A DNA stretch of 64,000 nt from Bdellovibrionales bacterium (lineage in GTDB: Bacteria; Bdellovibrionota; Bdellovibrionia; Bdellovibrionales; UBA1609): the NCBI GenBank assembly GCA_965261545.1, contig CBDHDF010000011.1, positions 1 through 64,000 of the forward strand. The letters run 5' to 3'. Position 1 is the stretch's first letter. Every line of letters starts with the position of its first letter. A model generated the notes under the pieces. It was not told the origin of the DNA and searched no databases. It saw nothing but the letters and a program-made list of their open reading frames with translations. The translations under genes were made by a program, and so were the position numbers. This document shows positions 5,982 to 27,790 of the stretch, in pieces.

Positions 5982-6218
5982 TTTGTCTCGAACTGAGTCC
6001 AAGCTCTATGTATTTCTTAATATTGTTGATCATTCTTGCTCCTTTTTTCTTACCTTGTTTGCCCATAGACACCTCCTCGTTAATGCGTAGCGCAGAAAGA
6101 ATATCTATGAAGATCTAAGTGGGTCAATGTTTGGTGAAATTCAGTGGGTCAAACTTCGTGAAATCGGGTGGGTCAAACTAGGTGAAATTGGGTGGGTCAA
6201 ACTAGGTGAAATTTTGCA
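5982..6218 (-). mobile_element. Left-end fragment of a third IS21-family element (C)
   Basis: TG terminus at 6218 and four ~24-bp repeats GTGGGTCAAACTAGGTGAAAT (6119-6215). RBS GAGGAGGT and ATG 6066 give MGKQGKKKGARMINNIKKYIELGLSSRQT, an IstA-like N-terminus cut by element A. Confidence 0.7.
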
Positions 6219-10812: not shown

Positions 10813-11200
10813 GTGATCTCGGTTGAACTCAAAATGCCGGTGACAAGTTCACATTTCGGCACAAACTTCATTCTTCACTTCGTTTTCTTAGTTTTTGTTA
10901 GGCGCCAATTAAAATTGGCCATTTTTAGAAGCCGTCGCCAATGAAAAACGGCCAGTTGATGATGTACTGATTTAGTTATTCTTCGTTCAGAGTTTAGTCA
11001 AGTGTCTTTATTTTGCTCATCATTTAACTCGGACTATGCCACAAGATTCTGAGGAATGATTTTCTGCCCACCACTTTTGGCATGACCCCAAATGCATCCT
11101 TCAGCCCTATGGCAGAGGTAAATGGAGTATTTTTCAGGATTCCTTGGCGCAGCTAATGTCTAAAGCTCCGCGAGAGTGACGAGCAAATAGTACGGTAAAA

Positions 11201-11298
11201 GCCAGTTATCCATAAATTTATCCATGGCGACACTGCGGCTGTGACCCCGATGTCTAGCAACGCAGTGCTGCTGTGGATAAATTTTGTGGATAACTGGC
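11201..11298. repeat. Long imperfect hairpin with DnaA-box sequences, homologous to 25535-25626
   Basis: GCCAGTTATCCA...TGGATAACTGGC. TGTGGATAA at 11272-11280 and 11285-11293. Confidence 0.85.
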
Positions 11299-11325
11299 GA
11301 GTTCCTTCCCCAAAAGTGGGGATCT

Positions 11326-12108
11326 CTAATGAACTTCTTTGGTTGAACTTTCCTCTTTGCTCTGTTTAGACTTGGCTTTTGCCGATTCGGTTCTCCAACT
11401 TTCTTTTCCTTCAATGTTGAGGGTTTCACAGTTGTGAATGATTCGATCAACAGCAGCAGCGGTGGTAATAGGGTTAAGAAACACCTTATCCCATTCAGAG
11501 TATGTTAAGTTTGTAGTGATCATGAGACTTTTCCTTTCATATCGCTGAGATATGAATTGAAAGAAAAGATCTGCCCCCTCTGTGCAGGAAGCTGTATAGC
11601 CAAGTTCATCACAAGCAATAAGATCAAAACGGTCTAATTTCTTAAAAAGAGCATTCAATGAGAGTTCTTTCTTGCTTTCACGCATTGTTTCAATAAGTTC
11701 ATGAGTGGTGACCCATAAACATCGATAGCCTTGTTCACAGAGTGAACGAACTAGGGACATGGCCAAATGACTTTTCCCCATTCCAAAGCTTCCGTAAAAC
11801 ACAACATTACAGGCTTTTCTGACCCACTCTCCCTCTGCCATCCAATTAATTTGCTGAGCTGTCACTCCCGTTCTTTTCTGGAAGTTATAAGTTTGGAGTG
11901 ATTTAAGTTGAGGAAGCTTGGCCCCCTTAAGCAATCTTTTCACTCTCTGGGAATGCTTGTCAGCAAGCTCATTTTGAACGAGTATACCTAAATACTGTTC
12001 ATACGTCTTTTTTGTTTTTTCGGCAACTCTAGCCGTTGCAACATATTCATCCGCCATCGCTGGAAGTCGGAGTTTTTTAAGAGAACCTATAAGTTCTTCG
12101 TGATTCAT
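11326..12108 (-). CDS. istB: IS21 helper ATPase IstB
   Basis: GSFGMGKS, LIACDELGY, ITTNL, AAVDRIIH. 1-nt overlap with the istA stop. Confidence 0.95.
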   Translation of the reverse strand: MNHEELIGSLKKLRLPAMADEYVATARVAEKTKKTYEQYLGILVQNELADKHSQRVKRLLKGAKLPQLKSLQTYNFQKRTGVTAQQINWMAEGEWVRKACNVVFYGSFGMGKSHLAMSLVRSLCEQGYRCLWVTTHELIETMRESKKELSLNALFKKLDRFDLIACDELGYTASCTEGADLFFQFISQRYERKSLMITTNLTYSEWDKVFLNPITTAAAVDRIIHNCETLNIEGKESWRTESAKAKSKQSKEESSTKEVH

Positions 12109-13574
12109 TAAGAACCTCCTATGTTTGGAACAAGACTGTCATATTGAGACAATCTAGGTTGAAGTGGTTTTTGTTGGTCATTCAAATTAATTTTGGTGGG
12201 ATTTCCTAAGAGCAAATCTTTTATGGATTTAAAGTCGAAAATCTCACGACTTTCTAATTGAAGCTCCATGGCTGTAGATAAGTCCTGCCAACTCACATGC
12301 TGAATCAAGTTGATAACTCTTAAATATTCATGCTCGGCACGGCTTGAATCTTGTTGCTTGAGGTATTGATAAAAATTTTCAAACACATTTGTTGGAAAAA
12401 GAATGGATCGGTGAGCCCATCTTACCATGGCTTGCGGCTTACGAACTAAAGAAGGAAGGATATGTTCAAGAAGAAGACTATGCTCCCCATCAGGTTTTCT
12501 TTGATGGCGAGCGACAATTTCTTGCTTCCCTCCTGCACGATAGATCGTGACATGATAGGGACCCTGTACGGTTTTACAGGGAGATTGGATCACCTCATCA
12601 GGTATGGAATATGTGGTTTTACCTATTCTCAAAGTCCCATAACCATTACTTTGACAAATATTCACCTTACAGAGAATATCTTCATCTCGTGGAGGCAAAG
12701 GCTTAAGAACTTTGGCCTCCTCCTCAAAGCGAGATTTGGTGGAGTCACTCTGATGCTGATCCATATAAGACTCTAAAAACTGATTCAAATGATCCCAGTC
12801 TTTAAAAACAATTCCTTTGTTTCTAACAATATTTTTTATCCGAGAACTGAAGGTTCGAATATCACGCTCCACATCTCCCTTGTCAGAGCCCTTCCCTGCG
12901 CGGCAGGGAAGAACCTTAAATCCATAGTATTGGATGGCTCGATCAAAAGATTGGGTGTAAATTCGCTGATTTCCTTTAAGAACTTTCTTCACACAGGGAG
13001 ATAAATTATCAATACGGATGTTCGCACTCATCCCACCTATCTTTTCAAAAAAAGCATGCACCCCATCGATGAAACACTCATAGACAAGAAAGGGGTAGGC
13101 ACGAACCCAACAGGTGCCACTACAAGGCAATGTTCCAAAATGGAGATGAACGATCTGAACACCATCGGCAAATGGTAAAGCAACCTTCTCCTTAAAATCA
13201 AACTGAGCCTGTTCTCCAGGATCATATCTTTGGCTGAAAAAACGCTCCTTGGGGCGAGAACCAAGAATCTCACAAACTCTTCTCTGAACCGTTCTCTCAC
13301 TCCCACGATAACCCTCCTCAACTAATAGCTCATATATTTCACGGGCGGTGTTACTTGGGTTCAACTTCAAAAAGTACTTCACCCGATCCATATATCCATT
13401 AAGGGGATCTGGGCGAGTTCTTTTGGACCTCGCCTTGTACTTCGGTGGGGTGTTGGACTCACAGTACTTGCGCACCGTCTTACGATTGATCCCTAATTCA
13501 CGAGATATTTCTGTCTTATTTTTACCACTGTGACTCAGGTCACGAATGCGGCCGAAAGTGTATTGACTAATCAT
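12108..13574 (-). CDS. istA: IS21 transposase IstA
   Basis: HTH ISRELGINRKTVRKY; EQAQFDF, IRIDN, KGDVE. Start set to ATG 13574, which follows GAGGAGGA. Confidence 0.95.
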   Translation of the reverse strand: MISQYTFGRIRDLSHSGKNKTEISRELGINRKTVRKYCESNTPPKYKARSKRTRPDPLNGYMDRVKYFLKLNPSNTAREIYELLVEEGYRGSERTVQRRVCEILGSRPKERFFSQRYDPGEQAQFDFKEKVALPFADGVQIVHLHFGTLPCSGTCWVRAYPFLVYECFIDGVHAFFEKIGGMSANIRIDNLSPCVKKVLKGNQRIYTQSFDRAIQYYGFKVLPCRAGKGSDKGDVERDIRTFSSRIKNIVRNKGIVFKDWDHLNQFLESYMDQHQSDSTKSRFEEEAKVLKPLPPRDEDILCKVNICQSNGYGTLRIGKTTYSIPDEVIQSPCKTVQGPYHVTIYRAGGKQEIVARHQRKPDGEHSLLLEHILPSLVRKPQAMVRWAHRSILFPTNVFENFYQYLKQQDSSRAEHEYLRVINLIQHVSWQDLSTAMELQLESREIFDFKSIKDLLLGNPTKINLNDQQKPLQPRLSQYDSLVPNIGGS

Positions 13575-14177
13575 AAGATCCTCCTCATTGCTAACCTTTT
13601 GAGTTGCAAGAGGGAGGGACTCTGTGAGCTTATCTATATCAGAAGAAGAGACTTCATTGTCTAGTATTTGAACACTCCCTGAAGATTGGTCACTTTTCAT
13701 TGGCGACAACCTCCATATTGAAAGTGGGACATTTTAATTGGCGACGGCTTTAAGGGAAGCCTGTCTTCAGAAAGAAATTCCATGAAAATTGAGGCAAATG
13801 TTGGAATCTTGTGGAATTTAAATACTTTAGAAAATGGGCACAGCCTAAACAGGCTTTTCTTGACTATATATTTAACCTCATTGAAATCCAGAAACAGTCT
13901 ACAAATGACAAATATGGAACCTGAATAGGCTGTCATGGAAGGACTCTCCAACACGGAGCCCCTTTCCAGGTCGACAAGAACCCAAAAGGAGTTCTTATCA
14001 GCTCGGAGCCTTTTTATGAGTAATATCAATTGATTATATGCGTCTCGGTTGACAATGCCAAAAATCACCATAGGTCCTCCTCTGAAAAGTGGCCACTTTT
14101 CATTGGCGACGGTGGGGCATTTTAATTGTCAGCTAACAGTTTTGAGCCATCACCCATAATTGCACTCCATCATCCCT

Positions 14178-24638: not shown

Positions 24639-25534
24639 ACCAATGCCGTTTCCTTAAGAAAAATCTCTTGAAATTATTAGATAAATCGACAAGAATAAGA
24701 CTTGTTTTATTTTACACCCAACCCTCAACCAAGGAGTAAGTCACATGCAATCCAATATTGATCTCGAAAGCCCCCAAATGACGAGTTCGCGTCACAGATG
24801 ACCATTTTATTCTACCAAAACTTGATTCTTCCTTCAAGTCAGAGCACCTTGTCGATCCAGAAAAACAAAAAAGGAATCGAAAATTTAATCCTCAAATTTT
24901 CTTTTTTACCATTATCTATCTTATTTCCGGAACAAATTACGAAGGCTACCAAATCGCTCTTAAGACGGTATGGACTCATTTTGGTGACCTGCTTCTCATG
25001 CCAGTCAAAAGCAGTCTCAGCAAGATACGTCAAAGTATTTCTTACCTATTTTTCAAAGATATCTTTGAATCTTTGATTACAGACTACGAACCATTGAGAA
25101 AAACGTTTCATGGTTTTTATATCTATGCCATAGATGGCGACCAATTAGCACTTCCTCGCTCTAAAGATCTTTTAAAGGAGGGTTATTGTGGGTACCCTTG
25201 CCCAAATGAGATGGAAACTCATTTCTTACGTATGTATCTATCTCATGCTTATGACGTTTTATCGGGTGTGACAAAGAATCTTTGCTATTCTCCCGCTCTG
25301 AACGAAATCGCCAATGCTATTCAAATGATAGGTAGTTTTGAGAGTAATAGCATAACTCTCTACGATAGGCTTTATTTATCTACAGAGATTATTGGCTATA
25401 TCCGAGTTTCTCGGAGCCTAAAGTCCAAATTCCCTAGGGAAATAGCTAAAAACTGGATGTACAGGTTATTCCTAAGATTTGTACATAAAAACACGGAGGA
25501 CAGGGCTACCAAATCACTTGTGTGGAGAGCCGCC

Positions 25535-25626
25535 GTTATCCACAAGACTCACCCACAGCAGCGCTGCTTTATTGTGGCTCCGAGGGCCATAGCCGCAGCG
25601 TCGCCATGGATGAGTCTGTGGATAAC
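25535..25626. repeat. Long imperfect hairpin closed by two inverted perfect DnaA boxes, homologous to 11201-11298
   Basis: TTATCCACA at 25536-25544 and TGTGGATAA at 25617-25625. Confidence 0.85.
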
Positions 25627-25694
25627 TGACTCATCTTGGCGGAGTTAGTATGGGGAGGTGAATTGGAAAAAGAAATGTTGATCGACAATAAAAA

Positions 25695-26936
25695 CTATAA
25701 TGTACAAAAACGCTTGGGGAAACTTCCAACAATATCCAAATCCCCAGCACACAAGTAAATCATATTCTCAAAACCCTGTAGGTTCTTAAATCCTGAAGCC
25801 CGATTTTTTATGATCTTTAGAAGGCGATTGATTCCCTCAGCCTTGGCATTTGTGACAGGATCTTTAATGAAGGAAAGAATATTTTCTTGGTGCTTCCTGA
25901 GCATCAAGGCAAACTTTTTCATAGAATCAATGCGTGATCTTAAGGCACGAGTGATCCAGGCATTCAGAAAATTCGCAGCATGACCTGGACTCACATAATC
26001 CCAGAAATGCTCAAAATTATCTTTAAGCAGCCATGCTCTGAATATTTTATTGTTAGATTTCTCCATGAGGTTAATTTTACGAGTTTGGGCCTTACTACGA
26101 GAGGATGAACTGTAGGCTATCAACCAGCGAGTTCCCTTAATAGCCTTTCTGTCCTTCTTGCAGGCATCTCTCCAAATTTCTTTTCTCACCTCATCCACAG
26201 CCCTGTTGAGGGATTGAATAATGTGAAATTTGTCCAAAACGAGAGTAGCATTCTTACAATGCTCCTTGATAGAGGAGATGTAGCCTTGAGCCATATCACA
26301 ACAAGCCACTCTAATTTTGTCTCGCTGATATTGGCTGAGTTCCTTTGTAAAAAAGGAGTCTATTGTCTCCTTACCCTTACCTTTTCCAATCCAAACGACA
26401 CAGCCTTTCTTCATGTCGTAAATCAAGGTAATAAACTTCCTTCCCTTAGCATAAGAAATTTCATCGACTCCAATGACCTCCAAACCACGAATTTTGTGAC
26501 CATCTCGTTCCCTGTGGATGATTCGATGAATAAGATCAGATAAGGTGGATGTGGGTATCTTGACAAGCTCTGAAACGGCTTTTTGGGTCATCTGCTTGGT
26601 CAGGGTCAGAATTGTTAGTTCCAGACGATAGGTGACTCGACTGAAGTGGTCGGCCCAAGGAATTCTCTCCATAATACGACCATGAGTGGGACACAGAACT
26701 TCCTTCGGAGAATAATGGAAATAAATGGGGGTACCGCACACGACGATATCTCGCCACACTCTTTCTTCTAAGCATCTAAGTATCTTACAGCGGCGTCCAC
26801 AATGAGGACAGCGGCAGCCATTCTTATGGGGTTTAACCCCTAAGTGAAGTTCTTGATTTCGATTTTTAAATTTAACCCAAGTCACTTTTAAGAATGATAA
26901 TTTCAACATCTTTATAATAAACTTATTCAAGACCAT
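25695..26936 (-). CDS. ISL3-family transposase
   Basis: Zn-finger CPHC...CPTH; IGVDE, CDM, LDKFHI, TNAKAEGINRLLK. ATG 26936 follows AGGAG. Confidence 0.95.
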   Translation of the reverse strand: MVLNKFIIKMLKLSFLKVTWVKFKNRNQELHLGVKPHKNGCRCPHCGRRCKILRCLEERVWRDIVVCGTPIYFHYSPKEVLCPTHGRIMERIPWADHFSRVTYRLELTILTLTKQMTQKAVSELVKIPTSTLSDLIHRIIHRERDGHKIRGLEVIGVDEISYAKGRKFITLIYDMKKGCVVWIGKGKGKETIDSFFTKELSQYQRDKIRVACCDMAQGYISSIKEHCKNATLVLDKFHIIQSLNRAVDEVRKEIWRDACKKDRKAIKGTRWLIAYSSSSRSKAQTRKINLMEKSNNKIFRAWLLKDNFEHFWDYVSPGHAANFLNAWITRALRSRIDSMKKFALMLRKHQENILSFIKDPVTNAKAEGINRLLKIIKNRASGFKNLQGFENMIYLCAGDLDIVGSFPKRFCTL

Positions 26937-27790
26937 GGCATCTCCTGTATTATTTTCCAATAAGTAAATTAAGAGATTAAACCATGGTTTTGTTATGGGT
27001 AAAGTAATGAGGGGGATAAATCATGGAAATTGAATTATTTTCTTGGTTTTTAATGCGGTAATTCTGCAACGTCGAAATTAGGCCCATTTTCTGTTGAGAA
27101 ACTCGGATATACCCAGATTATTAAGGCCCATGCTCAAGCCAGTAACTTCTTTATTGCGCGTTGTAAGCGAGGCTCTACTTTTATCCCCATTGTAAATTTA
27201 TTTAATGGCCCAGGTTGGTATTCACGAATGGTTATTGAGGGGGTGGTCATTCATCTCTATAAGTATAAAAACCCAAAGACTGGGGAGTTCTCTGTTTTGG
27301 CCACTAATCTTCCGCATGGCTCCTTGGACAAGAAGGATATGGTTGCTCTTTACTCTCGTCGTTGGGAAATAGAAACGACATTTCGTGATTTTACATCGAC
27401 AATGAAAATGGAGCAGTGGCACTCAACAAGCCTTAATGGAATATTGCAAGAGCTGTATTCTTATTTTTGGCTCTTCAATTATACAAAGATTCAAATGAGC
27501 ATAAATGAGGATGAAGACAGTGTGAATCAGTTGGTAAAAAATGACTACAAAAAACCTAACTTTAAACTGATTCTTGATTTCATAATGGATAGCATCCCTC
27601 TTTTTGTTGCGGGGCTCTATCAGAAATTTAGGAAGCAGATAAAGTTGCTGATGAAGATTTCAATGGAGAAGAGGAGGCACTTCAAAAGAAGCTATGAAAG
27701 GTCTATCAAAAGGGCTGGGAGTTCTTTTAAAAGAAATAGCTTAACGCAGAGGCAGAGGGGTGTGGTGGCTTAAGGAAACGGCATTGCCTC

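Follow-up and report, generated by a model that had tools for sequence, protein, structure and literature searches.

A DnaA site exists in the outside end of IS50/Tn5, and plasmid R6K is the source of the A site. The A site belongs to the ABC primosome and is a single-stranded DNA hairpin with a DnaA box at which, in E. coli, DnaA loads DnaB and priming follows, as described in the available text of PMC6127211. The available part of PMC2723962 makes no mention of the IS50 site. Among insertion sequences (IS), the conversion of the figure-eight to the circle draws on host replication, and the second-strand synthesis of copy-out-paste-in elements is ascribed to 'host replication mechanisms' with no cis signal given in the part of the article that is available (PMC3299598). 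According to the accessible text of PMC8116780, transposition from incoming single strands requires a double-stranded intermediate. Here we describe DnaA-box hairpins that are carried by several unrelated ISs in the genome of a Bdellovibrionales bacterium, the starting point being a stretch of 64,000 nucleotides, which we call the window. Our literature search, made mostly outside subscription papers, supplements and ISfinder, returned no publication on a DnaA-box hairpin common to IS families, and this includes the available part of PMC6006769.

Two DnaA-box hairpins in the window

The two hairpins were found as a sequence-only reading of the window had written them, at 11201-11298 on the plus strand and at about 25531-25631 on the minus strand. 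Each is in an IS whose family was assigned by NCBIfam. The first IS, IS21-B (10896..14138, minus strand), has about 60 copies, TG..CA ends, and a 5-bp flanking direct repeat. It codes for the IS21 transposase IstA (12108..13709, minus strand, NF033546 over cut-off) and the 260-aa helper ATPase IstB (11326..12108, minus strand, NF038214 over cut-off), and its hairpin is 304 bp inward of the right end. The left end of IS21-B has a 124-aa ORF with no Pfam or NCBIfam match (13697..14071, minus strand), which is upstream of istA and is present in most IS21-B copies. The second IS is an ISL3 element (25394..27114, minus strand) that has an 8-bp flanking direct repeat, sits within an IS4-type element, and codes for a 413-aa transposase (25695..26936, minus strand, NF033550 over cut-off). 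From the stop codon to the start of the hairpin there are 27 bp and 63 bp in the two elements, respectively. Elsewhere in the window, at 6133-6212, three repeats spaced by 24 bp match the end of a second IS21 type, IS21-C.

By sequence and folding, the IS21-B version of the hairpin (11200..11299, plus strand) has an imperfect stem of about 35 bp. Its plus strand is the strand with the G-T wobble pairs and is antisense to istAB. In the ISL3 version (25531..25631, minus strand) the wobble strand runs in the sense direction of the transposase gene, and this difference in orientation was absent from the sequence-only reading. The block common to the IS21-B and IS21-C hairpins has its limits exactly at 11200 and 11299. 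Since contigs of a second-study run span the IS21-B hairpin and the IS21-C version there shares exactly 11200-11299, with the same limits, the hairpin is not an assembly artefact.

Perfect TTATCCACA boxes number four in the window against 0.57 expected, a count that 0 of 100 shuffles reached, and all four fall inside these two hairpins. Thus, the earlier claim of two perfect boxes per hairpin holds for the count; the sites of these boxes in the stem, however, differ between the two versions. In IS21-B both perfect boxes are in the 3' arm, the inner one at 11272..11280 and the outer one at 11285..11293 (both on the minus strand). The 5' arm has an outer DnaA-like box with one mismatch (11206..11214, plus strand), which is perfect in the IS21-C, ISL3, and IS110 versions, and an inner one with two mismatches (11218..11226, plus strand) that is predicted to form a tandem-wobble duplex with the inner 3' box. 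In ISL3 the perfect boxes are the outer pair, at 25617..25625 on the minus strand in the 5' arm and at 25536..25544 on the plus strand in the 3' arm. The z-scores of the DNA fold, given for both strands, were -9.1/-9.8 and -5.6/-4.6 for the two hairpins and those of the RNA fold were -11.2/-9.3 and -8.1/-7.2, in each case better than 200 of 200 shuffles. A larger fold that includes the flanks was supported only in the IS110 version (2 of 100 shuffles, against 12-94 of 100 in the others) and was dropped.

Distribution in the genome and conservation of the stem

A profile was built from the two window copies and run over the 4.3-Mb genome, in which it found 108 places. The carriers are four IS types of three families, namely, two IS21 types, ISL3, and IS110, and by sequence type 61 places are IS21-B, 19 are IS21-C, 25 are ISL3-type, and 3 are IS110. 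IS21-C is a separate element, its IstB being only 25% identical to that of IS21-B. The hairpin is of full length with two perfect boxes at 97 of the 108 places. An occurrence across the genome that is independent of ISs, which the sequence-only reading had named as evidence against a module carried by ISs, was not seen, as solo copies were 0 of 108 and an IS-specific flank is present on at least one side at all 108 places. Sequence that is repeated at least three times makes up about 1.65 of the 4.3 Mb (about 38%), and the transposase types number at least 26, many of them nested. The hairpins had no bias toward the leading or lagging strand (33 versus 36, with 39 ambiguous, p=0.81) in this genome, the skew of which is fragmented. 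We kept out of the system 38 perfect boxes in an IS1634 that overlap its last codons and stop.

Several other loci touch on these elements. Of the seven 5' ends that were detected for a group II intron-like element (G000 C10:508797, C11:1056593, C2:463511, C2:47909, and C11:695141), five share a single position within the IS21 hairpin, in its 3' arm, and two fall in an IS1634 end whose short target is similar. One ISL3-type hairpin is broken at C10:111602 by an intron-like start of another kind. Composite derivatives are found at C10:250245, C11:121619, and C10:111672, in which an ISL3 right end that has the hairpin but no transposase has been joined on after an IS21-like end and a small helix-turn-helix-like gene. 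At C6:162100-164200 an IS1634, bordered on each side by a direct repeat of about 36 bp, lies among clustered DnaA-like boxes, after which come AT-rich repeats of 23 bp; this is possibly an origin-like region.

The differences between the two window copies had been taken as compensatory, and this was borne out, both partners being changed in 6 of 34 pairs. Among 10 variants, 99.4% of the cells pair compared to 28-54% in slid controls; these 10 rows are related, so the paired changes reflect few independent events. The IS21 and ISL3/IS110 groups are set apart by three spacer pairs and one loop-side pair; a further pair, an inner one (G-C/A-T), changed in the IS21 group and in the ISL3 group, and one of the six paired changes stems from a single copy. 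In this IS21-B copy, at C7:588546, the 3' arm has been made exactly complementary to the 5' arm, and this may be the signature of template switching, the alternative being a sequencing error. Paired changes need not mean selection because template switching also yields them, as at C7:588546. On the other side, the stem is less divergent than the loop and flanks in three of four pairwise comparisons (p=0.005, 0.002, 0.003, and 0.14), which are not independent of each other. The proposal that the structure is selected is therefore kept in part: conservation of the stem argues for it with moderate support, and the paired changes can be read in either way.

All the variants fold better on the same strand, by 0.7-3.9 kcal/mol with DNA energies and by 4.6-9.6 kcal/mol with RNA energies. 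This strand has six wobble sites and one A-C mismatch; taken alone, the asymmetry of the wobble pairs falls short of significance (6 of 7 sites, p=0.125). In ISL3 the wobble strand has the sense orientation; in IS110 and the two IS21 types it is antisense. The hairpin is always shortly 3' of the last transposition gene. If it were a 3'-terminal RNA hairpin of transposase transcripts or of antisense read-through, acting as a stability element or an RNase III substrate and with a box match that is incidental or inherited, then this position, the G-U pairs, and the strand preference with RNA energies would fit. We regard this as improbable: in three of the four carriers the favoured strand is the antisense one, and an RNA stem gives no cause to keep DnaA consensus boxes. 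The stem base is without a U-tract and a terminator scan returned nothing for ISL3 and, for IS21-B, no more than a small sub-hairpin, and the hairpin was thus rejected as an intrinsic terminator. An Rfam match, the presence of which the sequence-only reading had said would count against a new module, was absent from the window, where the best sub-threshold match was a microRNA model at 28 of 76 bits.

The 108 places contain 200 of the 298 perfect DnaA boxes of the genome, compared to one perfect box and three one-mismatch boxes in the dnaA-dnaN interval. These numbers would be expected of a double-stranded DnaA-binding cassette that couples the timing of transposition to the cell cycle, stops transcription from reading through at the end of the IS, or titrates DnaA, its palindrome following from the inverted box pairs. 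Such a cassette would be functional in either orientation, and the outer boxes are perfect in duplex DNA. In addition, generic convergent-box patterns were found in 19 of 400 phylum genomes at loci that all adjoin dnaA or dnaN, and the origins of the phylum have convergent box pairs at a similar spacing. However, pairing and paired changes reach positions outside the boxes, in the spacer and the inner GC stem, and the two to three mismatches of the inner boxes are tolerated in the fold as wobble pairs. The origin loci, moreover, have 0-32 axial pairs and weaker folds, against 38 axial pairs for the hairpin. A cassette that acts as duplex DNA is for these reasons unlikely.

Exchange between insertion sequences

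The IS21-B and IS21-C versions have 118 bases in common at 86% identity with unrelated flanks, and ISL3 and IS110 have 182 bases in common at 84%; in the window this block of about 180 bp, hairpin and flanks, is at 25475..25652 on the minus strand, with approximate limits. At C11:695068 an IS21-B right end has a hairpin with 74 bases left, which match the IS21-C version without a difference, and this, as far as sequence identity goes, is direct evidence of exchange or of shared origin. The hairpin was absent from 80 of 80 metagenomic ISL3 relatives at 51-67% identity (best E 1.8). In the 70 of 80 relatives whose right end was found, this end has a median length of 69 bp and is at most 79 bp long, compared to 301 bp here; the remaining 10 were too short or had no recognisable end. 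The hairpin was also absent from 22 GTDB relatives of IstB, several of which are distant or partial, and from 13 IS110 relatives at 28-46% identity. Closer relatives, at 67-85% identity for ISL3, 73-81% for IstB, and 63-79% for IS110, were available as proteins only, and the comparison of DNA thus covers more distant ones. Most of the close IS21 relatives belong to Bdellovibrionota genomes. Because the related ISL3 (80 loci) and IS21 (22 loci) elements are without it, the hairpin is acquired cargo. The suggestion of a portable cis-module exchanged between IS families is thus upheld by four carrier types with unrelated flanks, by relatives without the hairpin, and by one swap that was seen, with neither a solo copy nor an Rfam match.

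Taking the circle-forming families as they are listed in the available part of a preprint (10.1101/2023.06.07.543989), carriers make up 4 of the 10 types from circle-forming families, compared to none of the 16 other types (Fisher p=0.014), a count that leaves out one repeated 442-aa ORF and one further ORF, both without a family, and the recombinases. With a hand-set family table p was 0.016-0.024, and p was 0.096 once the IS481, IS91, and ISKra4 types were counted as circle formers. Since there are relatives free of the hairpin, and six circle-forming types in this genome, by the same list, are without it, the hairpin is not required. Presumably the spread of the cassette is due to recombination or deletion between ISs that are nested in each other and not to transposition of the cassette itself.

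Nesting of this kind raises the question whether the hairpin is a neutral passenger, that is, a palindromic fragment gained once, made symmetric by template switching, and shuffled among the nested ISs that go with about 38% repeats. A template-switch product was seen, ISs are constantly nested in each other here, a 30-bp remnant of an IS21-B-like end is near the IS21-C hairpin, and no homologue was found outside this genome, all of which would agree with it. It is nevertheless hard to reconcile with exchange limits that match the stem base, with wobble pairs that persist where template switching would erase them, with a stem conserved over its flanks, and with analogous box hairpins on other ISs in other hosts. 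Long palindromes, furthermore, are usually lost without selection. We consider a mere passenger to be a poor prospect.

Hairpins elsewhere, a proposed role, and known systems

Homologues of the window hairpins were sought beyond this genome. Blastn of the hairpin gave 0 of 40 relatives, exact hairpin patterns matched nothing in GTDB contigs, IMG/VR, or JGI metagenomes, and blastn of both hairpins against 72,556 plasmids gave only matches of 20-25 bases at E=3. A covariance model, R1, matched 0 of 108 family genomes, and on 76 loci it gave at most 40 bits, with phage or origin box arrays, compared to 110-122 bits for true copies. Generic convergent-box patterns were present in 4 of 300 order genomes, namely, an IS110 hairpin, an origin, an in-gene match, and a gene-start match. 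A wobble-duplex pattern was present once each in 13 of 250 order genomes and was treated as chance, the listed sequences not being hairpin-like. With two loosely defined viral patterns, box-rich arrays were found at 37 and 29 phage loci, respectively. The 37 loci (L032-L068, IMG/VR) have dense DnaA-box arrays, many of them foldable and often near contig ends; on inspection they were not homologous to the window hairpin. The search of IMG/VR for transposase relatives gave none of use.

Two further DnaA-box hairpins adjoin IS110 genes in genomes of the same order. One of them (L022:293-395, G039:C579) is 5' of an IS110 transposase, is of a third type that combines both box polarities, has a DNA z-score of -12.7, and is present in a single copy in its assembly. 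The other, L334 (L334:1487-1622, G056:C31), is a 140-base hairpin of opposite box polarity 3' of an IS110 gene. A plasmid of Legionella antarctica has a homologue of L334 at 85%, immediately behind an IS3-type transposase; another, at 76%, is in a plasmid of L. israelensis, and weaker ones are in two small plasmids, one from Oceanimonas and one of 2.8 kb from E. coli, and in Cupriavidus. The Rep of the Oceanimonas plasmid is a Replicase/PriCT-1 protein, and the Cupriavidus hairpin adjoins a coat-like gene (a weak match, E 6e-4) and a gene for ssDNA binding in a filamentous-phage-like arrangement. In all six members of this family (L334, L348-L352) one of the strands gives the better fold, and covariation was seen at 14 of 45 pairs in an imperfect alignment of six sequences. 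The family had no Rfam match, viral patterns built for it gave nothing, and phage blastn gave short matches only. It has in common with the window hairpin an 11-bp box duplex with tandem G-T pairs, the arms being swapped, and a looser form of this duplex was found in 1 of 56 other box-rich loci. A covariance model of the family, R2, gave 0 matches at E<=0.1 in this genome and matched 2 of 149 phylum genomes, both beside origin loci. Because R2 finds nothing here, kinship with the L334 family rests on the short duplex, and by sequence comparison the two are analogues that have a motif in common and are not proven to be one family.

The reading that we favour, though tentatively, is that the hairpin may be a portable single-strand priming site carried as IS cargo. 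The DNA of the IS would be single-stranded during the formation of the copy-out circle or after entry of one strand into the cell. One strand would then fold into the long hairpin, the stem of which would rebuild double-stranded DnaA boxes, and the host DnaA would bind these boxes and load the DnaB helicase, so that primase could start the second strand as at the A site. We infer folding in vivo, binding of DnaA to the hairpin form, priming, and a benefit to transposition. The IS-flanked places, carriers that are circle formers, the conserved stem, the constant better-folding strand, and the L334 and L022 analogues are in favour of such a priming site. The DnaA of B. bacteriovorus recognises a matching consensus according to the available text of PMC5124646, and this host has genes for DnaA with an intact domain IV (the DNA-binding domain), DnaB, DciA (over cut-off), and PriA. 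On the other hand, a host with PriA and DciA differs from the loader set-up of E. coli, which counts against priming, as does the orientation of the hairpin to the transposase, which varies between carriers. A ComEC-like gene (L325, G000 C2:177586-181179) appears to be split over three frames, as a pseudogene or through an assembly error, and this weakens the route by transformation.

A wider proposal, which we hold to be possible and rather more doubtful, is that unrelated ISs recruit a single-strand origin from a pool of small plasmids and filamentous phages, that DnaA and not PriA primes their circles or incoming strands, and that several architectures built on one wobble DnaA-box duplex make up an unrecognised class of IS cargo. 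In this wider proposal the expansion of the hairpins, to two thirds of the perfect DnaA boxes in this genome, could be a sink for DnaA that acts on chromosome initiation. The IS burst has put 200 perfect initiator boxes outside the origin. Non-coding modules are seen here to move between transposon families, and a 100-base cassette that is present in some ISs and absent from their relatives makes the question of the second strand directly testable.

Several known systems can be compared with the hairpin. The chromosomal oriC was rejected as dnaA-dnaN is on contig C4 with its own boxes, and the hairpins are GC-rich and borne by ISs. REP/REPIN elements and MITEs are like the hairpin in being palindromic with about 100 copies. 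REP/REPIN with RAYT was rejected since solo copies are 0 of 108 and the four Y1 transposase fragments, at two loci, do not adjoin the hairpin, and a MITE was rejected since there is no target duplication, read by eye, at the hairpin limits in the four carriers. As described in the available part of 10.1101/2025.01.17.633520, ssr9 of ISPpu9 (IS110) is likewise a dispensable non-coding module downstream of an IS110 transposase; it is, however, mobilised by its own IS110 and occurs alone, whereas the module described here crosses IS families and carries DnaA boxes. An IS110 bridge RNA would probably differ, in that the block here is common with ISL3 and its favoured strand is antisense. The L334 family is alike in its location 3' in ISs, its long wobble-rich stem, and the 11-bp box duplex, and unlike in its reversed box polarity and three-way architecture. 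The site in IS50/Tn5 is similarly a DnaA consensus within an IS end region; it is one box in the transposase-binding end of one element, whereas here a 100-bp hairpin is 140-720 bp inside the end in three families. The A site, which is the nearest precedent of known function and is compared by its description in the available text, likewise presents a DnaA box on a hairpin stem, which here is a predicted fold, and a strand-specific fold is expected of both. It has a single box and acts with the DnaC of E. coli, whereas the window hairpin has two box duplexes per stem and is inside ISs in a host with DciA, all 108 places being in ISs or IS remnants and none at a plasmid or ssDNA-phage origin. 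The hairpin would thus be a signal of a known kind, with a mechanism that we only propose, in an unexpected carrier.
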